Positions 327-16,336 of a stretch of 64,000 nucleotides of DNA are shown one piece after another. The notes below the pieces were generated by a model. The model did not search any database. It was not told the origin of the DNA and saw only the letters and a program-made list of their open reading frames with translations. The DNA comes from Ruminococcus sp. Lineage in GTDB: Bacteria > Bacillota > Clostridia > Oscillospirales > Ruminococcaceae. Position numbers and translations under genes: made by a program. The stretch lies in NCBI GenBank assembly GCA_021199305.1, contig JAJQIH010000037.1, forward strand, positions 1 to 64,000, given 5' to 3'. The stretch's first letter is position 1, and every line of letters begins with the position of its first letter.

Positions 327-2303
327 ATGTCTTTTAAGAAAAAATTCTTGAGCGTAGTTTCCGCTTTGGCTTTTGGTGCAACCTGTCTTACAGGCTTAAC
401 CGCCAGTGCCGCTGACGCTAACACGCTTTTAGAGAATCTGGATGTTTCAGGCGGATATTCTTATATTGATACCTATTACACTTCTACCTATTATGCTAAA
501 AGTGCTTTTGAGATTCAATATGAGTATGTTTCCATAGATGACGATGGAGAGTATTACGACAGAGATACTGATGAACTAACTGCTATTGACTATTCTGATA
601 CCTTCGAGTTTCTTGTTTTTGACACAAGCTGGGGTGGCTGGAACGCTACCAAAGTAGGTGTATCAGAAGCTGAGGAAGGCACTGTTTATACAGCAACAGT
701 GTCAATTTCGGGTATTGAAAGTAAACTTGATACAGGGTTATCGCCTTATGGCATTAACCTTGAAACTGGCAGAATTGGCGATACTAAAGTCAGAATTATA
801 TCTCTGAAATATGTAAACGATACTTCTGTTGAAAGCTCAAATCTTGAAGCATCCGGAAGCTGGGTTAAAGGAACAGGCGGCACTATGGAAGTAACATCAG
901 GAACTGCTACCGTTTCCTTTGATGAATGGAAAATCGACATTTCCAAGCTTTGCGTATATAGCTTTACCAATCCAACGATTGATGTAACAGTTAATTACGA
1001 AACAGCGCCGAACGATTACGTTCAGGCGGAAATTCTCGACAACCAAGGAAATCCAATCGTCTCAAATTACCCTTACGTTTCTGAATCGGGAAAGGTTACC
1101 TATACGACCGAGTTCGATAGCGACCTCACAGCGTTATCTCTTTGCTATGATAGCTGTACAGTAACTACTATTAAGATTTACGACAATACAGACGGAAATA
1201 CCGAATATTCTGTATCAGGTAAATCAGCAACTGAGATAGCAAACGATATGGGAATGGCTTGGAATTTGGGAAATGCCCTTGACTGTGTAAACAGCGAAAC
1301 TGGTAAGGTTGATGAAACCTGCTGGGGAAATCCTGTTACTACCAAAAAGCTTATTCAGGCTGTTAAGGAACAGGGCTTTAACACGATAAGGATTCCAATC
1401 TCCTATCTGGATAAGATTGTAGAATCTACTGAGAACGGTTCTGCAACCTATACTGTTGACGACGACTATCTCGCCAGAATCAAGCAGGTTGTTGATTATG
1501 CTTATGATATGGGTATGTATGTTGTAATTGATATGCATAACGACGGCGGAGAAGGCGTAACAGGAAAATGGCTCGATATTACTAAGTCGGGCGACGAGTT
1601 TACAGAAATTGTAGACAAATACTCAGATGTATGGACAGATATTGCAACATACTTTGCAGATTATGACCAGAAGCTTATATTTGAAGGCTTTAATGAGCTG
1701 ATGAACGGCAATTATAGCGATACGCCGGCTGAAGACTCGTATTTGTATACTAATATAAATACATTGAATAATGCCTTTGTAAGCGCAGTACGCTCGACAG
1801 GAGACGACACTAATGACGACCGTATCCTTATCGTAGCGGGTTATAACACTGATATTGATTGCACTATAACAGGCTTTGACGTACCTGAAGATTCATCAGA
1901 AAACAAATTGATGCTCTCAGTTCATTATTACAGTCCTTATGACTTTGTTCTTAATGAAAGCGGAACATCAAGCTATACTTCTTCTGATTTGTCATCTATG
2001 GCAACCTCAATCAGTAATATTTGTTCGTTTGCATCAAAATCGGGTATGCCTGTATTTATTGGCGAGTACGGTCCTATAGATAAGACCAATACTACTGCAA
2101 GAGCAGAGTATTGCTATTATCTGAATTATTATGCGGCTAGTAACTCTGATGCTACTGTAGTATTGGCATTCTGGGATAATGGAGTTACCACGACCTATGG
2201 CTCTGGTCTCTTTAACAGAACTTCCAATACTGTAACCGATACAGGTTCTACAATAATCAGTTATATTAAAGCAGGGTATAGTTGTTCATCTATACCCTCA
2301 TAA
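327..2303 (+). CDS. Secreted glycoside hydrolase family 5 (cellulase/endoglucanase-like) with N-terminal non-catalytic region
   Basis: N-terminal signal peptide (MSFKKKFLSVVSALAFGATCLTGLTASAADA); GH5-type motifs MGMAWNLGNALD, IRIPISY, FEGFNELMN (NE acid/base region), VHYYSPYDF, FIGEYG; RBS AAGGAGG upstream of ATG 327. Confidence 0.75.
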   Translation: MSFKKKFLSVVSALAFGATCLTGLTASAADANTLLENLDVSGGYSYIDTYYTSTYYAKSAFEIQYEYVSIDDDGEYYDRDTDELTAIDYSDTFEFLVFDTSWGGWNATKVGVSEAEEGTVYTATVSISGIESKLDTGLSPYGINLETGRIGDTKVRIISLKYVNDTSVESSNLEASGSWVKGTGGTMEVTSGTATVSFDEWKIDISKLCVYSFTNPTIDVTVNYETAPNDYVQAEILDNQGNPIVSNYPYVSESGKVTYTTEFDSDLTALSLCYDSCTVTTIKIYDNTDGNTEYSVSGKSATEIANDMGMAWNLGNALDCVNSETGKVDETCWGNPVTTKKLIQAVKEQGFNTIRIPISYLDKIVESTENGSATYTVDDDYLARIKQVVDYAYDMGMYVVIDMHNDGGEGVTGKWLDITKSGDEFTEIVDKYSDVWTDIATYFADYDQKLIFEGFNELMNGNYSDTPAEDSYLYTNINTLNNAFVSAVRSTGDDTNDDRILIVAGYNTDIDCTITGFDVPEDSSENKLMLSVHYYSPYDFVLNESGTSSYTSSDLSSMATSISNICSFASKSGMPVFIGEYGPIDKTNTTARAEYCYYLNYYAASNSDATVVLAFWDNGVTTTYGSGLFNRTSNTVTDTGSTIISYIKAGYSCSSIPS

Positions 2304-2408
2304 AGAAAGAAAGGTTTCTTAAGAAATCCCTCCGCTTGTTTACGGCGTCTTTTATGGCGAAGTAAAATTACAAAACGGAGGGATTTTTTAATTTTTTAGG
2401 TGACTCAT

Positions 2409-4961
2409 ATGAAAAAAATATTGTGTTCAATATTGTCATTTGCCATAATGTGTATGTTGTTCAGCTCTATTATACCTGCGTATGCGGACGATTATTTGAC
2501 TGAAGGGGATTGGACATATTCGGAAGAGGGATCTCTAAGAGGATACAATGGTACGGTTGTTGAAAACTTGACCTTACCGACACAGCTAGGCGGTGTTACC
2601 TTAACGGGCACCGCCTATACTTTTTATAATAATGGTTCATCATATAACTTTAATAACGAAGTTGTTTCTGTAATAATACCGGAAGGCTATACGTTAGTTG
2701 GCACTAACACATTTTATGGATGCACAAAGCTAAAAACCGTGGAGATACCAGAGGGCGTTACAAATATATCAACTTATGCACTGAGGAACTGTGTTTCGCT
2801 GGAAAGCGTCACACTCCCTTATTCTGTTGCTAAACTTATGGGTAGTTGCTTTAGCGGTTGCACAAATGAAAATTTAATTATTGATATCAAAAGAACAGAA
2901 ACCTTCACAACCTTGAACAGCACAGCGTTCTCGAATGTGGTAGGTACTATTTATGTATACTCACAGGAAGTATATGATCAAATTTCAGCAGTAGCTACAA
3001 CGGCAACGGTTATTTTAAAAGAAGAGGAAATAGACACTTCCGAGCTTGAAGCAGCAATTACAGCAGCAGAAGCTATCGATACAAGCGTTTATACAACGGC
3101 AAGCTTAGCGACATTAACCGACGCCGTTACAGCAGGTAAGACAGTTCTTAACAACGAAGACGCAACGCAGACAGAGATTAACAACGCAGCAACAGCTATA
3201 ACCGATGCAATTGATGCGCTCGTAACCCTTTTAGCTGAAGCGATTGAAAACGCAGAGTCGGCAATTGAAGCGGCGGAAATGATTGATACTACAAATTGTA
3301 CAGAGGATAGCGTAGCAGCGTTGACAGCGGCTATAGAAGCGGCAAAAACAGCGATAGCTGACGAATCGGCGACTGCTGATTCAGTTGAAGCGGCTGTAGA
3401 AGCGGTAAACGCGGCAGTAGCAGAGCTTGAAGGCGTAATTTACGTAACCGAAGATGAAGAGCTATACAACTCGATTTCATCAGCGGCAACAAGCGCAACG
3501 GTAATTTATGTAGCAGAGTCAGGTTTAAGCGGTCAGGTTCTGGCTAACATCTATTATGGTGGCAATACGTTATATCAGATTGCAACAGGAACAGCAGGTT
3601 CTGACATTGCAGGAGCGACAAGCGTCAAAGTATACTTTGACTGCGCGTCCGATGTAAGCTACAATCCATATGCATCGATTGATTTATATGCGGTAGTAAA
3701 TTCGACGCAAAACTACGCACAGATTGCAGGAACAGACAGCTCCTACTCGTCAGGTACAACAGGCTGGTCGGAAACTCTGTCGCTTGAAAATGCGATAGCA
3801 GAAGGCGACACATATACAATTTCCGGAGCTACATGGTCATGGAGCGGAGCGGAAGATTACGTATATGCAGTAACTAAGGTAGAGTTTTTGGATGACTCTG
3901 GCGCTGTACTGGCAACAATTGACCCGAACGTAGCTAACGACCTGACAGAGTTAAAGGCAGCGATAGTAGAAGCTGACGCCGTTGACGAAACAGTTTATAC
4001 AGACAACAGCGTAGCTACAATGAATGAAGCTCTCGCAGCAGCTATAACAGTTATTGGTAACGCAGATGCAACTCAGGATGAAGTTGACGCAGCAACAGCA
4101 GCTTTGACAGCAGCAATTGCTGGCCTTGTTGACACTTCAGACCTTGAGGGAACAATCGCAACAGCGGAAGATATTGATACGTCGGCGTTTACGCCATCGA
4201 GCGTAGCGGCAATGACCGAAGCACTTGAAAGTGCAAAGGAAACGCTTGCAAACGCAGACGTAACACAGGACGAAGTAAATGCGGCGGTAGATGCTCTGAC
4301 AGAAGCGATTAACGGCTTGACAGAGCTTGCTGACACAACAGATCTTGTAACTGCAATCGCAGATGCTGAGACAGTTGATGCAACCCTTTACACATCTTCA
4401 AGCGTAGCTGACTTAACAGCAGCACTCGAAGACGCAAAGACAGTTCTTGACAATGCAGATGCAACTCAGGACGAAGTTGATGCAGCAGCATCAGCTTTGA
4501 CAAGCGCAATCAACTCACTTGTAAGCGCATACTCGATAACTGGTACTGTATACGTTTCAGATTCTGATACAGAAACGACAATGACAGTAGCAGTAACTCT
4601 TGCAGATGGCACAGAGGTTTCAGCAGAAGCTACAAGTATGGGTGAGTACGCAATTGAAGGCTTGGATGCAGGCACTTACACAATCACAATCAGTGGTGGT
4701 AAATATGCTCCAAGAAGCTATGAAGTTGAAGTTTCGGAAAGCCTGACACAGGACGTTTACTTAAATCCATACGGAGATGTAAACGGTGACGGCAATGTAA
4801 CAACAGCAGATGTTGGACTTGCAAATAGCCATGCAAAGAACGTTACACTTCTTGAAGATTACGAATTTGTTTGCGCAGACGTAAATCTTGACGGAAGCGT
4901 AACAACAGCAGACGTTGGAAAGATCAACAGTCATGCTAAGGGCGTAGTAGCTCTATGGTAA
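2409..4961 (+). CDS. Secreted cellulosomal scaffold-like protein: BspA-type leucine-rich repeats, about 6-7 FIVAR helical repeats, CarboxypepD_reg-like domain and C-terminal type-I dockerin
   Basis: Signal peptide; LRR segment (VVSVIIPEGYTLVGTNTFYGCTKLKTVEIPEGVTNIS...); repeated 60-65 aa units with YT..S...L..A...AK..L.N.DATQ.EVDAA..AL..AI..L (FIVAR pattern); duplicated Ca-binding dockerin segments DVNGDGNVTTADV and DVNLDGSVTTADV at the C-terminus. Start moved to ATG 2409 (GGTGA 6 nt upstream). Confidence 0.75.
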   Translation: MKKILCSILSFAIMCMLFSSIIPAYADDYLTEGDWTYSEEGSLRGYNGTVVENLTLPTQLGGVTLTGTAYTFYNNGSSYNFNNEVVSVIIPEGYTLVGTNTFYGCTKLKTVEIPEGVTNISTYALRNCVSLESVTLPYSVAKLMGSCFSGCTNENLIIDIKRTETFTTLNSTAFSNVVGTIYVYSQEVYDQISAVATTATVILKEEEIDTSELEAAITAAEAIDTSVYTTASLATLTDAVTAGKTVLNNEDATQTEINNAATAITDAIDALVTLLAEAIENAESAIEAAEMIDTTNCTEDSVAALTAAIEAAKTAIADESATADSVEAAVEAVNAAVAELEGVIYVTEDEELYNSISSAATSATVIYVAESGLSGQVLANIYYGGNTLYQIATGTAGSDIAGATSVKVYFDCASDVSYNPYASIDLYAVVNSTQNYAQIAGTDSSYSSGTTGWSETLSLENAIAEGDTYTISGATWSWSGAEDYVYAVTKVEFLDDSGAVLATIDPNVANDLTELKAAIVEADAVDETVYTDNSVATMNEALAAAITVIGNADATQDEVDAATAALTAAIAGLVDTSDLEGTIATAEDIDTSAFTPSSVAAMTEALESAKETLANADVTQDEVNAAVDALTEAINGLTELADTTDLVTAIADAETVDATLYTSSSVADLTAALEDAKTVLDNADATQDEVDAAASALTSAINSLVSAYSITGTVYVSDSDTETTMTVAVTLADGTEVSAEATSMGEYAIEGLDAGTYTITISGGKYAPRSYEVEVSESLTQDVYLNPYGDVNGDGNVTTADVGLANSHAKNVTLLEDYEFVCADVNLDGSVTTADVGKINSHAKGVVALW

Positions 4962-5016
4962 AGCTAATCCTTCCTTAATGGGATTTATTATTAGATCTCT
5001 GAGAAAAATAGTTGCA

Positions 5017-5054
5017 AAAATCGGCAGAGTTTTCACTCTGCCGATTTTTGTTTT
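5017..5054 (+). terminator. Rho-independent terminator after the dockerin gene
   Basis: Hairpin atcggcagag-ttttca-ctctgccgat followed by TTTTTGTTTT. Confidence 0.7.
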
Positions 5055-5164
5055 ACAGGGGCGACAAGCATTTCAATGCGGTCGCCGAGCGTTTTACGAA
5101 GTATAATGCGGGATAGAGAGGATAACGAAATCTGACATTGTTAATAGCGGAAAATCTACTACTT

Positions 5165-5215
5165 TCTACTGTTATTTTTACTATTTTGGCAACGAAGCGT
5201 TTAACGGAGTTTAAT
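5165..5215. repeat. Copy A of a small dispersed intergenic repeat family (partner at 42975..43073)
   Basis: tgttatttttactattttggcaacgaagcgtttaacggagtttaatgcgtg aligns with 42975-43073 (tgtttatttctacaagttttggca ... aagcgttaaacgaagtttaatgcgtg, with two insertions in copy B). Confidence 0.5.
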
Positions 5216-5405
5216 GCGTGGTATTTTTACAGTTTCCCCTCGCCGAAGGCGAGGGGAAATTCTTTCTTTTCCAGGGCGAAGAGTACATACACCCGTTTAT
5301 ATGCCCACTTTGTTTCCCACTTCTTTATTTACATTATAGCAGCACAGGCTTTTTGGACAAATCAAGGCTATATCAGGTCGCTTTACAGCGGTCTGGTATA
5401 GCCTT

Positions 5406-5432
5406 TTTTCGCAAAGTATCTTAATTGACGAA
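5406..5432. repeat. Left 27-bp inverted repeat (IR-L) of the recombinase-containing invertible segment
   Basis: ttttcgcaaagtatcttaattgacgaa is the exact reverse complement of 6704..6730. Confidence 0.9.
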
Positions 5433-5461
5433 CGCTGACACGTCATCATTTATCTAGTAAA

Positions 5462-5490
5462 ATTATATATGGTGTTGTCGGATTTGTCAA
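5462..5490 (-). promoter_or_regulatory. Perfect consensus sigma-A promoter (TTGACA-17-TATAAT) on the minus strand inside the invertible segment, currently firing outward through IR-L into gene-free DNA
   Basis: Plus strand 5462-5467 attata (rc TATAAT), 17-nt spacer, 5485-5490 tgtcaa (rc TTGACA). Confidence 0.6.
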
Positions 5491-5525
5491 TAGAATGCAT
5501 AAAAATGTCGAAAAAAGTAGCAAAA

Positions 5526-5555
5526 TTGACGTCATATAGAACCAGGGCGTTTAAT
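5526..5555 (+). promoter_or_regulatory. Candidate promoter for the recombinase gene (TTGACG-18-TTTAAT)
   Basis: Sequence match only; lies about 50 nt upstream of the int RBS. Confidence 0.3.
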
Positions 5556-5604
5556 CTGTTTTACATTTCCTTCAGCATACATTTATAATTGCGGAGGTAC
5601 TGCT

Positions 5605-6669
5605 ATGTCGGAAAGAGGAGAAAATGTTTATAAAAGAAAAGGCGAAAGAAAAAACTCTACAGATTTAAAACGTCAGCAGCTTGAAATTAAAGACGAGTTG
5701 CAACAAGCTGATTTGTATTCTGATACGCCGTCTTGCAAATATGCTACAGTTTTAGATGAGTGGTTGGCAATGTCAAAAATACGGGTTAAGGAATCGACCT
5801 TTGCTTGCTACTCCCGAATTGTCAATTCGCATATTCGGGAAGAATTAGGCTCCTGTAATATAAATGAATTGACAACGATGATGATTGAGCAATTTATAAG
5901 CTACAAGCTGAGCATTGGCAACTTAAACAGCTGCAAAGGTCTGTCGCCGAAAACTGTCAGCGACATTCTATTTGTAATCAAAAGTACGCTCGAATATGCA
6001 AGGTGTCAGGGCTTGGATGTTCGGTGCAATCTGAGCCGAGTGGTCATAAAACGCTCTACAAAGGAGATACGTGTACTTACCAAAAAGGAGCAAGGCAAGC
6101 TCGTGAAGGTTCTGCTTGCCGATATGGATTTATATAAGTTTGGAACGCTTCTTTCACTCTATACCGGCATCAGAATTGGCGAGCTTTGTTCGCTGCAATG
6201 GCAGGACTTTTCTCCCGATAGTTGTGTTTTATCTGTAAGGAAAACAATCCAGCGAGTTCAAAATACCGATAAAGAAGCTTTAGCTAAAACAAAGGTAATC
6301 ATAACAGAACCTAAAAGTCAATGCTCTGTAAGAGATATACCAATACCTGCTTTTTTAAGAGAATACGTCGAACGGTTCAGGTCGGAAGATTCAGCATATA
6401 TTCTTTCAGGTCGTCAAGACAAATATGTTGAACCACGGACTATGCAGAATCACTTTAAAGCTTTTGTCAGACAAAGCAAAATTGCTGACGCTAACTTTCA
6501 CTCTTTGCGACATACATTTGCAACAAGATGTGTAGAGGTGGGATTCGATATTAAAAGCCTGAGCGAAATTCTAGGGCATTCTAACGTGAATATTACGCTG
6601 AACCGCTACGTTCACTCTTCTTTTGAGCTCAAGGCAAGCAATATGAGCAAGCTTTCTCTTGAAGTATAA
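5605..6669 (+). CDS. Tyrosine site-specific recombinase (phage integrase family)
   Basis: RBS GGAGG before ATG 5605; N-terminal SAM-like domain; catalytic signature TGIRIGEL (Arg), HSLRHTFATR (His-x-x-Arg), LGHSNVNITLNRYVHS (His, Tyr nucleophile). Confidence 0.85.
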   Translation: MSERGENVYKRKGERKNSTDLKRQQLEIKDELQQADLYSDTPSCKYATVLDEWLAMSKIRVKESTFACYSRIVNSHIREELGSCNINELTTMMIEQFISYKLSIGNLNSCKGLSPKTVSDILFVIKSTLEYARCQGLDVRCNLSRVVIKRSTKEIRVLTKKEQGKLVKVLLADMDLYKFGTLLSLYTGIRIGELCSLQWQDFSPDSCVLSVRKTIQRVQNTDKEALAKTKVIITEPKSQCSVRDIPIPAFLREYVERFRSEDSAYILSGRQDKYVEPRTMQNHFKAFVRQSKIADANFHSLRHTFATRCVEVGFDIKSLSEILGHSNVNITLNRYVHSSFELKASNMSKLSLEV

Positions 6670-6703
6670 GCTGTCAGTTTTATATCCAGCTTTTCGGAAA
6701 TAT

Positions 6704-6730
6704 TTCGTCAATTAAGATACTTTGCGAAAA
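6704..6730. repeat. Right 27-bp inverted repeat (IR-R), ending 3 nt before the RBS of the first TIR gene
   Basis: ttcgtcaattaagatactttgcgaaaa, the reverse complement of 5406..5432. Confidence 0.9.
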
Positions 6731-6746
6731 TATGGAGGTAATTAAA

Positions 6747-9215
6747 ATGGCAATCATAAAATGTAAAATGTGCGGCGGAGATATGGAAATCAATGAGGAG
6801 AAGTCTTTTGGCGTCTGCGAATACTGCGGAAGTACAATGACCTTGCCTAAAATTGATGATGAACAAAGGCTTGCTGCCTTTAATCGAGGAAATTATTTCA
6901 GACGTATTGGCGAATTTGATAAAGCTATTTCAATTTTCGAGCAGATTGTTGCCGAGGACGATACCGATGCCGAAGCGCATTGGTGCTGTGCGCTTTGTCG
7001 GTTTGGTATTGAATACGTCGAAGATCCTGCTACCCTTGAATGGCTGCCAACCTGTCACCGTGTGAGCTTTGATAGTTTTCTGGAAGACGTTGACTATCTG
7101 GCTGCTGTGGAATATTCAGACGGCATCACTCGCCGACAATATCAGAAGGATGCAGCTAAAATTGCAGAGGTTCAAAGAGGAGTTCTGGCGACAAGTCAGA
7201 AGGAAGAGCCTTTCGATGTCTTTATTTGTTATAAGGAAAGCGATGAGAACGGCCAGCGTACCGTAGATTCCACTCTCGCTCAGGATATTTATTACCAGCT
7301 TACCGAAAAGGGCAGGCGGGTGTTCTTTGCACGTATTACATTGGAGGACAAGGGCGGAGCTGAATACGAGCCGTACATATTTGCTGCGTTAAATAGCTCC
7401 AAGGTAATGGTTGTCGTTGGAACTAAAACTGAAAACTTCAATGCTGTCTGGGTTAAGAACGAGTGGAGCCGTTTCTTAAGCCTGATGAAAAAGGACCATT
7501 CAAAGCTGCTGCTGCCTTGCTACAGGGATATGAATCCTTATGATTTGCCTGACCAGCTTTCAGTTCTTCAATCTTACGATATGAGCAAAATCGGTTTTAT
7601 TCAGGACCTTATAAGAGGCGTAGACAAGGTTCTGGACGCTGGAAAGCAAACTGAAACTAAAAAAGAAACCGTCGTCATTCAAGGCGAAGGCGGCGGGAAT
7701 ATTTCCGCTTTGATAAAGCGTGGAAATATGTCGTTGGAGGACGGCGACTGGGATAAGGCTCAGGAGTTCTTTGACAGGGTTCTTGATAATGATGCTGAAT
7801 GTGCGGAAGCTTATCTCGGTAAGGCTTTGGCTGATATGAACCTTGCAAACCTTGATGCGTTTGAATACAGATATTTGCCGAAAGCAGATAATATCGAACC
7901 GACTGAACTGCAAGCTTACGTTCCGAATCAGAAAGAGCGGGAAGAAAAGCTTGCCGAAGAAAATGAAGTTCCGTACCAGCTGACAAAGGAAGACATACAT
8001 AATATCTGCACATTCGATTTTTCTTATCCAAGCCGTGTGAGCCGCTATAAAGAGGAAATGAACGCTGCTCTTGGAAAATTTCAAAACCGTAATTTTAAAA
8101 GAGCGGAGGAATATGCAAGCGGTAAATTCAAAATGCAGATAGAAGCTTTCAAGAGCGACACAAACAATAAAATGAAAAAGGCGTTGAAGGCTCTTGAAGA
8201 CGAGGATGCGCAATCGCAAAAGAATATCTGCGAGCGATATGATGAAGCCTTTGCAAAATGGGAAGAGCAAGCTGCACAAATGCGTACAACCGCCGAAGCT
8301 AAAAGAGAAGATGTATATCAAAGGGCAGTTTCAGCATTTGAAAAAGAAGAAGATAACTATAAGGCATTAGATTTATTTCAAAGAGAAGTAATAATAGATT
8401 ACAAAGACTCAAAAGAATATATAGGAAAAATTAAAAAACTCGAAAAAGAGAAAGCTGAACAAGTAGAAAAAGCAGAGAAGGAGAGAAAAGAAGCTTTACA
8501 GCAAAAAGAGAAGGAACGAAAGAAGAAAATCAAAAGAATCAAAATAAGTATAAGCTGTGTTGCTGTCGTAATAGTTTTTGCAGTTGTATTATTTACGGTG
8601 ATTATCCCGTCTATTAAGTATAACACAGCTATGAATTATTATCAAGACGGTGATTATGAAAAAGCTTATACTGCATTTGAGGAACTGGGCAGTTTTGGAG
8701 ATGCAAGCGATAAGATAACTGAAATAGCAGAAAAATATCCTAAAGTTATATGTGAAATGGCAGAGGACGGAGATATTATTAAATTTGGCAATTATAGTTG
8801 GATAGTTTTAGAAAAGACAGATGACACAATGCTGATTATCACAGAAGATGTTATTAAGGATAGAGTCTATAATGAGGAGTATGAAGATATAACATGGGAG
8901 GATTGCACACTTCGCGAATATCTGAATGGTTCATTTTATAATAGATTTTCAGAAGGAGAAAAATCAATGATAGCGGAAACAACCTTATCGGATAACAATG
9001 ACATAGTAGACAAAATTTTCCTATTAAGTTTAGAAGAAGCAGAGGAGTATATGACAGAAGATGAACGGGCTGCTTCCGGTTGGTGGTGGCTGCGGTCGCC
9101 TGGCGATACTCATTCTAGTGCGGCGGGAGTCTATTTCAACGGTGTCGTCGATACAAATGGTTGTGCTGTTGACGCTAAGGGTGGCGTTAGACCCGCTTGT
9201 TGGATTACTTTTTAA
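6747..9215 (+). CDS. Receptor-like multidomain TIR protein A: N-terminal C4 zinc ribbon, TIR domain, TPR repeats, coiled-coil, one TM helix, C-terminal WWLRSP (DUF6273-type) domain
   Basis: CKMCGG...CEYCGS zinc ribbon; TIR hallmark DVFICYKESDENG...VFFARITLEDKG...SKVMVVVGTKTENFNAVWVKNEWSRF; TPR-like EDGDWDKAQEFFDRVLDNDAECAEAYLGKALA; hydrophobic ISISCVAVVIVFAVVLFTVIIPSI; C-terminal WWLRSPGD...GGVRPACWITF. Start moved to ATG 6747 (GGAGG 8 nt upstream). Confidence 0.75.
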   Translation: MAIIKCKMCGGDMEINEEKSFGVCEYCGSTMTLPKIDDEQRLAAFNRGNYFRRIGEFDKAISIFEQIVAEDDTDAEAHWCCALCRFGIEYVEDPATLEWLPTCHRVSFDSFLEDVDYLAAVEYSDGITRRQYQKDAAKIAEVQRGVLATSQKEEPFDVFICYKESDENGQRTVDSTLAQDIYYQLTEKGRRVFFARITLEDKGGAEYEPYIFAALNSSKVMVVVGTKTENFNAVWVKNEWSRFLSLMKKDHSKLLLPCYRDMNPYDLPDQLSVLQSYDMSKIGFIQDLIRGVDKVLDAGKQTETKKETVVIQGEGGGNISALIKRGNMSLEDGDWDKAQEFFDRVLDNDAECAEAYLGKALADMNLANLDAFEYRYLPKADNIEPTELQAYVPNQKEREEKLAEENEVPYQLTKEDIHNICTFDFSYPSRVSRYKEEMNAALGKFQNRNFKRAEEYASGKFKMQIEAFKSDTNNKMKKALKALEDEDAQSQKNICERYDEAFAKWEEQAAQMRTTAEAKREDVYQRAVSAFEKEEDNYKALDLFQREVIIDYKDSKEYIGKIKKLEKEKAEQVEKAEKERKEALQQKEKERKKKIKRIKISISCVAVVIVFAVVLFTVIIPSIKYNTAMNYYQDGDYEKAYTAFEELGSFGDASDKITEIAEKYPKVICEMAEDGDIIKFGNYSWIVLEKTDDTMLIITEDVIKDRVYNEEYEDITWEDCTLREYLNGSFYNRFSEGEKSMIAETTLSDNNDIVDKIFLLSLEEAEEYMTEDERAASGWWWLRSPGDTHSSAAGVYFNGVVDTNGCAVDAKGGVRPACWITF

Positions 9216-14960: not shown

Positions 14961-14989
14961 TTGCATTTTTTGTATAAGTGTGCTATAAT
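14961..14989 (+). promoter_or_regulatory. Sigma-A-type promoter TTGCAT-17-TATAAT for the DUF4143 ATPase gene
   Basis: Sequence match; ends 30 nt before the start codon. Confidence 0.55.
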
Positions 14990-15019
14990 ATACCCATAAT
15001 ATACTTTGGAGGTGGGCAT

Positions 15020-16336
15020 ATGTATAGAACCGCAATAGAAAAGCTGCTGAAATGGAAAGAAAGCAAGCACAGCAAGCCGCTTATTATCGAGGGAGCCAGA
15101 CAGGTCGGTAAAACCTGGTTGATGAAGGAGTTCGGAAGGCAGGCTTATTCCAGCACGGTATACATTAACTTTGATTCTAATTCACAAATGGCGGAGCTGT
15201 TTTCGTCTGACCTGGACACAAGCCGCATAATTATGGGATTGGAGCTGTACGCTGGCAGCAAAATAGACCCTGAAAATACGCTTTTGATTTTCGATGAGGT
15301 TCAGGAGGTTCCCAGAGCGCTTTCCTCGCTCAAGTATTTTTGTGAGGACGCTCCTCAATACCATATCGTTTGTGCAGGTTCGCTTTTAGGTATTGCATTG
15401 CATGAGGGTACTTCATTTCCAGTAGGAAAGGTGGATTTTTTAAAGCTTTATCCTCTTTCTTTTGTTGAGTTTTTAATGGCGGTCGGCAAGGAACGCTATG
15501 CAGAATTGCTCGCAAGACGAGATTTCGATATGATTTCCGCTTTTAAACAGACATATATTGACGCTTTGAAGCAATACTATTTTGTAGGCGGTATGCCCGA
15601 GGCTGTTCAAAGCTTCGCAGAGGATAATGATTTTAACGAGGTTCGTGACATTCAAAAACGTATACTTGCGGCTTATGAGCAGGATTTTTCCAAACACGCT
15701 CCTAATGAAATTGTACCGAAAATCCGAATGGTCTGGAACAGTATTCCTTCTCAGCTTGCCAAAGAGAACAAAAAGTTTATTTACGGCCTTGTCCGTGAGG
15801 GAGGACGTGCAAAGGATTACGAAACCGCAATTATGTGGCTGACAGACTGTGGTCTTGTTCATAAGGTCAGCCGTGTTAATGCGGCTGGTATTCCCTTGAA
15901 GGCTTACGAGGATTTAAAAGCGTTCAAGCTGTATGTTGTTGATGTTGGCCTTCTCGGATGTATGACTGGACTTAACCAGCATACATTGTTAGATGGCAAC
16001 GATCTTTTTGTAGAATTTAAAGGAGCATTAACAGAACAATATGTTTGCCAGCAGCTTAAAGCAATTGACAATTTGAATATTTACTATTACACTAACAGCA
16101 GGAACTCGTGCGAAGTTGACTTTGTCGTTGACACAGGAGTTCAGATTGTTCCTGTAGAGGTAAAGGCTGAGGTGAACCTTAAGTCAAAAAGTTTAAAGAC
16201 ATATTGCGAGAAATACTCTCCTCAAATTGCTGTTCGCACTTCAATGGCGGAATACAAAAAAGAAAATTGGCTTTTAAACTTGCCATTGTATGCAATATCC
16301 TGCTTTAATATGGTAGATGACCTTTCCGTTTTGTAA
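15020..16336 (+). CDS. AAA-family ATPase of the DUF4143 type
   Basis: P-loop LIIEGARQVGKTWL; Walker B LLIFDEVQEV; family typically associated with accessory/mobile regions. Start at ATG 15020 (GGAGG 8 nt upstream). Confidence 0.7.
   Translation: MYRTAIEKLLKWKESKHSKPLIIEGARQVGKTWLMKEFGRQAYSSTVYINFDSNSQMAELFSSDLDTSRIIMGLELYAGSKIDPENTLLIFDEVQEVPRALSSLKYFCEDAPQYHIVCAGSLLGIALHEGTSFPVGKVDFLKLYPLSFVEFLMAVGKERYAELLARRDFDMISAFKQTYIDALKQYYFVGGMPEAVQSFAEDNDFNEVRDIQKRILAAYEQDFSKHAPNEIVPKIRMVWNSIPSQLAKENKKFIYGLVREGGRAKDYETAIMWLTDCGLVHKVSRVNAAGIPLKAYEDLKAFKLYVVDVGLLGCMTGLNQHTLLDGNDLFVEFKGALTEQYVCQQLKAIDNLNIYYYTNSRNSCEVDFVVDTGVQIVPVEVKAEVNLKSKSLKTYCEKYSPQIAVRTSMAEYKKENWLLNLPLYAISCFNMVDDLSVL

Follow-up and report, generated by a model that had tools for sequence, protein, structure and literature searches.

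Results

Inverted repeats, a recombinase gene and an operon in the window

The window, that is the whole 64-kb stretch of DNA analysed here, contains two 27-nt inverted repeats (IR-L and IR-R), which are 100% complementary and delimit a segment of 1,325 bp (5406–6730). This segment encloses a promoter facing outwards (P-out) and the gene of a tyrosine recombinase, int (Table 1). No third copy of the repeat was found in the window, even if three mismatches were allowed, and the original prediction that P-out lies inside an invertible segment is therefore backed by a perfect and unique 27-bp repeat pair around an intact recombinase. The 16 nt counted in that prediction between IR-R and the ATG codon at 6747 were also confirmed (6731–6746). 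They include the GGAGG motif at 6734–6738, and the ATG opens a cargo of five tightly packed genes.

Table 1. Positions of the switch elements, hairpins and genes in the window.
Feature	Position	Strand	Remarks
Hairpin, bidirectional terminator-like	5015–5050		16-bp stem, T-runs on both sides
Strong hairpin abutting the outer edge of IR-L	5364–5405		19-bp stem
IR-L, left recombination site (putative)	5406–5432		TTTTCGCAAAGTATCTTAATTGACGAA; outer half fits the family motif TTTCGYRRAGTAT
Alternative candidate int promoter	5435–5463	+	CTGACA-17-TAAAAT, 10/12; back-to-back with P-out
P-out	5462–5490	−	−35 TTGACA 5490–5485, 17-nt spacer AATCCGACAACACCATA, −10 TATAAT 5467–5462
Candidate int promoter, best match	5560–5589	+	TTTACA-18-TATAAT, 11/12; kept in L002
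int, tyrosine recombinase, 354 aa	5605–6669	+	Phage_integrase and SAM_3 (SAM-like) domains
IR-R, right recombination site (putative)	6704–6730		fully complementary to IR-L; 16 nt separate it from the cargo ATG
Cargo gene 1: Zn-ribbon, TPR, TIR, TPR, membrane span (residues 594–628), C-terminal DUF6273	6747–9215	+	RBS GGAGG 6734–6738
Cargo gene 2: SIR2_2/AbiH-like, 316 aa	9234–10184	+	
Cargo gene 3: SPFH/Band-7 domain protein, 618 aa	10177–12033	+	8-nt overlap with gene 2
Cargo gene 4: small multi-pass membrane protein, 228 aa	12035–12721	+	ATG 12035, RBS AGAAGGAG
Cargo gene 5: Zn-ribbon, TPR, TIR, membrane span (residues 468–496), DUF6273; 702 aa	12766–14874	+	paralogue of gene 1

The cargo had initially been named a TIR-SIR2 operon. 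This name holds at the level of domains, where Pfam TIR_2 and SIR2_2 are the only models that support it, and fails if a catalogued defence system is meant. PADLOC gave no match for the SIR2-like protein and only marginal matches for the TIR proteins, while the score obtained with the NCBIfam model of Thoeris type III ThcB4 was 21.5 bits at a cut-off of 220. Assignment of the cargo to Thoeris (ThsA SIR2 plus ThsB TIR) or to any other catalogued TIR/SIR2 defence system was therefore rejected as lying below the model thresholds. Exact look-up of the 822-aa TIR protein returned no record. Both TIR proteins have one predicted span with the Zn-ribbon, TPR and TIR domains on its N-terminal side and DUF6273 on its C-terminal side, and this modelled arrangement suggests receptor-like membrane proteins. 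Directly after the operon (14978–16336) lies the gene of an AAA_14/DUF4143 ATPase, which corresponds to PADLOC candidate system PDC-S01 (E = 1.8e-194), and together they may form a small defence island. Upstream of the switch (327–4961) a GH5 cellulase and a FIVAR/LRR/dockerin protein are encoded. Such genes of the cellulosome type fit a Ruminococcus that degrades fibre in the rumen, to which the closest relative of the recombinase (see below) also points. The dockerin gene ends at the terminator-like hairpin at 5015–5050.

P-out and the DNA that it faces

A combination of TTGACA and TATAAT separated by 17 nt had been read without mismatch on the minus strand, and the promoter scan agreed with it in 12 of 12 positions of the σA consensus. 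P-out turned out to be the sole perfect match on both strands of the whole window, and 100 dinucleotide-preserving shuffles of the window gave no perfect match at all. If at most one mismatch was allowed, 8 sites were found against 0.54 expected; the canonical σA-type consensus is therefore in use in this genome. These match statistics, together with the conservation described below, rule out a chance match as the origin of P-out. The promoter sits 29 nt inside the left repeat arm and, as sequenced, reads outwards, that is leftwards, with a predicted start of transcription at about 5454–5456. Hereafter the orientation with P-out facing away from the cargo is called OFF and the opposite one ON.

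The original prediction assumed gene-free DNA to the left of the switch, and no credible leftward gene was indeed found there, so that a role of P-out as the promoter of such a gene was rejected. An 87-aa open reading frame on the plus strand (5138–5401) has lost its start region in L002, the contig with the closest relative of the recombinase, and a 50-aa frame on the minus strand (5449–5297) runs across IR-L. In comparison with L002 the DNA left of the switch shows deletions totalling 86 nt as well as several indels of 1 nt, and it is therefore read as non-coding. An Rfam search over positions 4900–6800 gave only matches far below threshold, with no known RNA in the region of the OFF transcript. 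An ATG is present on the minus strand at 5449–5447, 5–7 nt past the predicted start of transcription. In the ON orientation it would be in frame with the cargo ATG and 60 nt upstream of it with no stop codon in between, which would add 20 residues; most probably this is a coincidence.

The strong hairpin at the outer edge of IR-L occupies the slot where relatives carry an intrinsic terminator for transcripts leaving the switch. Its T-run belongs to the plus strand, while on the minus strand the stem is followed just by GAUUUGU. For this reason it looks more like a barrier against transcription reading in, and the OFF transcript may continue to the terminator-like hairpin at 5015–5050, which is plausibly its furthest end. 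The 127-nt OFF transcript is predicted to fold at −36 kcal/mol (z = −4.58), and no structure is predicted for the ON leader (z = 0.22).

Inversion of the segment maps position x to 12136 − x. The computed positions after inversion are 6646–6651 for the −35 element, 6669–6674 for the −10 element and about 6681 for the start of transcription, which gives a leader of about 65 nt. The −35 element would then begin 101 nt and the −10 element would end 72 nt upstream of the ATG at 6747, in line with the distance estimated in the original prediction. This geometry lies inside the range of the family described below, where 53–130 nt separate the end of the −10 element from the start codon in all but two loci. 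The original prediction saw no independent strong promoter between IR-R and the ATG, and the scan detected no rightward promoter-like site between 5589 and 6742.

A family of cassettes with a near-invariant promoter block

The same layout, namely terminator, IR, outward TTGACA-17-TAnAAT, int, IR and cargo RBS, was found in relatives with recombinases 53–68% identical to that of the window and with unrelated cargo (L004, L005–L014 from Agathobacter rectalis, L106, L110 and L114). The recombinase of L004 is 68% identical, and that of A. rectalis, which is present on hundreds of contigs, 57%. In both cases a perfect repeat of 25–27 nt starts with TTTCGYAAAGTAT, an outward promoter with the identical block TTGACAAATCCGACAACAC follows about 30 nt inwards and a terminator-like hairpin stands outside this first repeat; int is followed by a hairpin, the second repeat and the cargo RBS. 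Throughout the relatives the repeats have the outer motif TTTCGYRRAGTAT in common, the promoter is placed 28–37 nt inside one of them and directed outwards, and the RBS of the cargo lies beyond the other.

The 19-mer TTGACAAATCCGACAACAC (5490–5472 in the window) was found at 16 loci when species-representative genomes were scanned and at 75 in metagenomes. Of these 19-mer loci, 53 include the two repeats together with the flank on each side; the window and the loci found earlier are added to them. Such a search is biased to loci that keep the promoter, and three further recombinases were for this reason looked up by their exact protein sequence; each of them has TTGACA-17-TAnAAT at the same place. 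All 38 distinct promoter sequences have a spacer of 17 nt, and their −10 element is TATAAT in 26, TAAAAT in 6, TACAAT in 4 and TATACT in 2. In the alignment of six elements found through their proteins (A2) invariant columns cluster in the −35 element, the spacer, the −10 element and the IR, while the 30 nt between the −10 element and the IR vary freely. Thus, the promoter is the most conserved non-coding feature of the family.

Part of the loci carrying the 19-mer deviate from this layout. In L018, L019, L020, L032 and L039 the block of IR-L and promoter is present, int is truncated and no IR-R was found, so that they are apparently decayed remnants of cassettes locked in one orientation. The 19-mer without the IR motif was registered in L023, L026, L036, L044, L056, L057, L063, L077, L084 and L105, and it also occurs in six viral contigs of IMG/VR (L118–L123). 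The viral contig L120 and the metagenome contig behind L044 are both 28,991 nt long and may be the same contig. The contigs without the IR motif and the viral ones may represent unrelated contexts or a different element.

The 19-mer block is the same in five of the six protein-found elements, and in these five the 13 spacer bases AATCCGACAACAC (5472–5484) are unchanged; L110 differs at three positions of the spacer. For recombinases just 53–68% identical such constancy of the spacer exceeds what contact with a sigma factor requires, and the block may have a second role, for instance as an operator for the XRE-type protein encoded first in the cargo of relatives or as an accessory site of recombination. 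One could go further and regard the block mainly as a protein-binding site of this kind, in which the hexamers are incidental. However, the drifted spacer of L110 (AATTCGGCAACATC) is accompanied by intact hexamers and the 17-nt spacing, the −10 element varies solely among functional variants, the block always points outwards through the IR, and in relatives it is accompanied by a terminator on the far side of one IR and by an RBS on the far side of the second. We consider it very improbable that binding is the main function; the two roles are not mutually exclusive.

Orientation of the segment in public assemblies

The state of each locus was called from the side of the terminator and the side of the cargo ORF, and of the 53 complete loci 33 were OFF, 16 ON and 4 unclear. 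At least eight elements occur in both orientations across independent public assemblies. DNA scans revealed five flank-matched loci in opposite orientation, and in the pairs L016/L025, L031/L072 and L037/L047 the segment with 750–1000 nt of each flank is 99.3–100% identical, only the segment being flipped. Exact-sequence look-up of recombinases gave the same result for three of the four relatives present on many contigs (P0060, P0103 and P0097), with L106 opposed to L107, L111/L113 to L110/L112 and L115 to L114/L116/L117. The elements with P0097 and P0103 are mostly ON, while the fourth one, with P0013 of A. rectalis (L005–L014), was OFF in 10 of 10 places among the matches listed. The flipped pairs and the presence of both orientations therefore make inversion at these repeats a fact for the family.

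Contig L030 (CATJWA010000018.1, 1460 nt) begins and finishes precisely at the outer ends of the two repeats, and such a contig is the assembler product expected when both orientations are present in one sample. As a proxy for heterogeneity within samples, contig ends at the repeat were registered only in L030 and L060, which are too few to be used.

The flank-matched pairs also bear on the idea that the unit bounded by the repeats is a transposable IS-like element with an outward promoter, which moves and does not flip. An enzyme that breaks DNA, enclosed by terminal inverted repeats and accompanied by an outward promoter, does resemble the architecture of insertion sequences, and related cassettes in front of unrelated cargo in many genomes imply that the unit or the cargo was exchanged over evolutionary time. 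However, the enzyme is a tyrosine recombinase without a transposase domain, the window holds a single copy, no plasmid matched the cassette in a blastn search, and the members of the pairs differ by inversion in place, bounded exactly by the repeats, rather than by presence or absence. An insertion sequence was therefore rejected as a candidate, and we give this idea almost no credence.

For the element of the window itself all four contigs (the window, L001, L002 and L003) are OFF. Exact look-up of its recombinase and of the 96% identical relative yielded only three further contigs and no ON copy, and scanning of metagenomes with the IR of the window GTCAATTAAGATACTTTGCG gave 0 matches. The state of the window is deduced from the family rule, according to which the promoter faces the non-cargo side and int faces the cargo in the OFF state. 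The OFF reading proposed originally, with the operon driven after inversion, is thus strongly supported by sequence comparison: the promoter has the same place in every relative examined, and relatives are found in both orientations between identical flanks.

The recombinase and the state of this copy

The catalytic residues R190, H299-x-x-R302, H325 and Y335 of the recombinase are invariant across relatives (alignment A1), and the closest solved structures are those of the Tn1549 integrase (6EN0, 6EMY, 6EMZ; E about 1e-15). Thus, the marks of an inverton found in the window comprise the IR pair, a recombinase with intact catalytic residues and a promoter directed one way through the repeat. 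The closest relative, P0001 on contig L002, belongs to a metagenome-assembled genome of “Ruminococcus sp.” and is 96% identical. The two genes differ by about 31 nucleotides (dN/dS 0.24, dS 0.075), while 212 nt at 5321–5532, including the hairpin, IR-L and P-out, show no differences.

Both proteins lack 22 N-terminal residues (WEGRYIRxYDENGKxKYGYVYG, around codons 15–16), which are found in every other member of the family. By analogy with integrases of the Tn916/Tn1549 type, this segment is probably part of an arm-binding domain, although Pfam recognised no family in the 65 N-terminal amino acids of a full-length relative. In relatives int is also framed by GCCGTCA-N5-6-CCGTCA repeats, one immediately ahead of its RBS and one immediately past its stop codon, and in the window the CCGTCA repeats flanking int are degenerate (5558–5583 and 6670–6697). 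Their loss in parallel with the 22 residues suggests that they are arm-type sites. Taken together, these changes suggest that the switch of the window is either simplified to a core-only form or in the course of slowing down, and with degenerate repeats and a shortened recombinase it may be slow or locked.

The promoter of int proposed originally (5526–5555, TTGACG-18-TTTAAT) is not supported: it failed the scan, its −10 element is replaced in L002, and the sites at 5560–5589 and 5435–5463 match the consensus better. For the first of these the predicted start of transcription falls inside the RBS of int (GGAGG 5593–5597), which makes its assignment uncertain. Between P-out and int a patch of 27 nt (5532–5558) is wholly replaced in L002, next to the 212 identical nucleotides on its left, and from the sequences this appears to be a site of local hypervariability or recombination. 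Between the int stop codon and the IR a hairpin is present in most relatives. In the window neither visual inspection nor the scan revealed a hairpin or a terminator in the 34 nt from the int stop codon to IR-R, and because of this a low level of read-through from int into the operon is plausible.

These data have to be weighed against the view that the switch of the window has invertible ancestry and is now locked or decaying, being frozen OFF by the N-terminal deletion in int and the decay of the CCGTCA repeats. The perfect promoter would then be a relic firing into non-coding DNA, and the operon would be silent or expressed by read-through from int only. It is in line with the uniform OFF state of the four contigs, with the 22-aa deletion common to P0001, with the degenerate motifs beside int, with the gap before IR-R that may permit read-through, and with the decayed relatives (L018–L020, L032, L039). 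However, the two IR arms are still identical in 27 of 27 positions, int has been under purifying selection since the split from L002 and retains its catalytic residues, and 0 substitutions in the promoter and IR-L against about 31 in int are unexpected for a relic unless the split is too recent. Moreover, the simple tyrosine invertases FimB and FimE, as well as Cre, manage without an arm-binding domain. A locked state therefore seems rather unlikely to us, and we prefer the reading in which the copy of the window still flips.

Discussion

Based on these data one can assume that the segment 5406–6730 is, quite probably, a self-contained invertible promoter cassette sequenced in its OFF state, and that a flip would drive the TIR/SIR2 operon. 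In the proposed mechanism the tyrosine recombinase would act on the 27-bp inverted repeats on either side of its gene as its recombination sites, and the σA-type P-out would fire outwards through IR-L. In the OFF state it would transcribe leftwards into non-coding DNA that starts with a strong hairpin, while int would be directed towards the cargo. If the repeats recombined, the segment would be flipped and P-out would come to face the cargo, so that the unstructured leader of about 65 nt, started at about 6681, would cross IR-R and reach the RBS and the ATG at 6747. The ON transcript would serve the operon of five genes, that is two TIR/DUF6273 membrane proteins, the SIR2-like protein, the SPFH protein and the small membrane protein. 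This reading presumes that the copy of the window still flips, that P-out is active, and that the operon is silent or only weakly expressed in the present state.

Several known systems resemble this arrangement in part. Sekulovic et al. cite Hin as a recombinase encoded within the invertible segment (PMC5903667). The H-segment of Salmonella (hin-hixL/hixR, fljBA promoter) is similar to the cassette described here in that it contains both a recombinase gene and an outward promoter and in that one orientation drives the adjacent operon while the other silences it. Hin, a serine invertase, depends on an enhancer and Fis, whereas the window encodes a tyrosine recombinase that belongs with the integrases of Tn916/Tn1549 type and is combined with 27-bp repeats in a host belonging to the Clostridium class of anaerobes; a serine invertase system of the Hin/Gin type was therefore rejected. 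Inversion of a short regulatory segment bounded by inverted repeats, with an ON/OFF outcome and a tyrosine recombinase, is also characteristic of fimS of E. coli (FimB/FimE) and of the RecV switches of Clostridioides difficile (flgB, cwpV, cmrRST). Their segments are of about 150–300 bp, and the recombinase is encoded outside, adjacent in the case of Fim and remote in the case of RecV. In contrast, the segment of the window is 1.3 kb long and holds the recombinase inside, which turns the whole switch into one portable unit.

The integrases of Tn916 and Tn1549 are the nearest in solved structure, and the extra N-terminal segment of the relatives sits where these enzymes have the arm-binding domain. 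Unlike theirs, the sites of the window are inverted repeats around int, which implies inversion and not excision or integration, and the N-terminal segment is absent. An integrative element of this type, with direct att sites and usually xis and transfer genes, was rejected, since the sites are inverted and enclose just the promoter and int, and since the segments of relatives invert in place. The invertible promoters of Bacteroidales (Mpi, Tsr, PhaseFinder invertons) likewise gate surface or conflict operons of gut commensals and occur in both orientations in metagenomes. They differ in phylum and promoter type (the σAB consensus of Bacteroidetes), and recombinases there act in trans on many short invertons.

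“Inverton group 139” from Clostridia of the hCom2 community is linked to tyrosine “invertase group 35” (PMC11892184). These invertons are of about 230–260 bp with the recombinase nearby, and shifts of their orientation were seen experimentally (PMC11892184). They are similar to the cassette of the window in the clostridial host, in a family-specific tyrosine recombinase adjoining the invertible DNA and in arms that are 14–26 nt long in two printed examples, the longer of them resembling the repeats of the window (PMC11892184). As described there, they differ from our element in that the recombinase is not inside the segment. Full-text searches of the literature, with some journals beyond their coverage, found no description of a family of tyrosine invertons with internal recombinase in Clostridia. 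From the sequence data the switch of the window appears to belong to a widespread on/off family of gut and rumen Clostridia, for which no description was found. Inverton finders of the PhaseFinder type reportedly have a size limit and are tuned to segments of a few hundred bp, and the family, with a segment that is 1.3–1.5 kb long and holds a gene, may have escaped them for that reason.

The first cargo gene of most relatives encodes a small HTH protein of the XRE type. It is followed by YukD and an FtsK/SpoIIIE (EssC-type) ATPase, DUF87 ATPases, an FHA-PP2C-kinase module or Zn-ribbon/TPR proteins; WXG100-like proteins, coiled-coil LXG-toxin-like proteins and an Hsp70-like pair were recognised by eye. 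The cargo of the window has no HTH gene, and a TIR protein comes first. Judging by sequence, the cargo of the family can be described as conflict or secretion-related systems, and a switch placed in front of such costly cargo fits bet-hedging on costly functions. We tentatively suggest, giving it slightly less than an even chance, that the window represents an undescribed and widespread family of portable ON/OFF cassettes that phase-vary conflict systems in gut and rumen Clostridia. Such a cassette would consist of a recombinase of the Tn916/Tn1549 type, a near-invariant σA block and two inverted repeats of 17–27 bp, and a terminator immediately beyond the IR on the side away from the cargo would insulate it.

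Much work has been devoted to phase variation through inverted promoters in Enterobacteria, Bacteroidales and C. difficile, and to our knowledge little to that in the dominant Clostridia that produce butyrate and degrade fibre. A. rectalis, which carries one member of the family, is among the most abundant species of the human gut. The locus described here and its relatives point to a compact and self-sufficient switch, which can be placed before almost any operon and in nature gates costly systems of conflict or immunity-like type. If this is true, it would explain how such genes are kept at low cost, as well as why isolates of identical gene content may differ in expression or phenotype. The TIR/SIR2 operon of the window is then best treated as conditionally expressed, and its annotation as “present” tells little about its activity. 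For organisms that are hard to engineer, the family would offer a natural genetic toggle in a single cassette.
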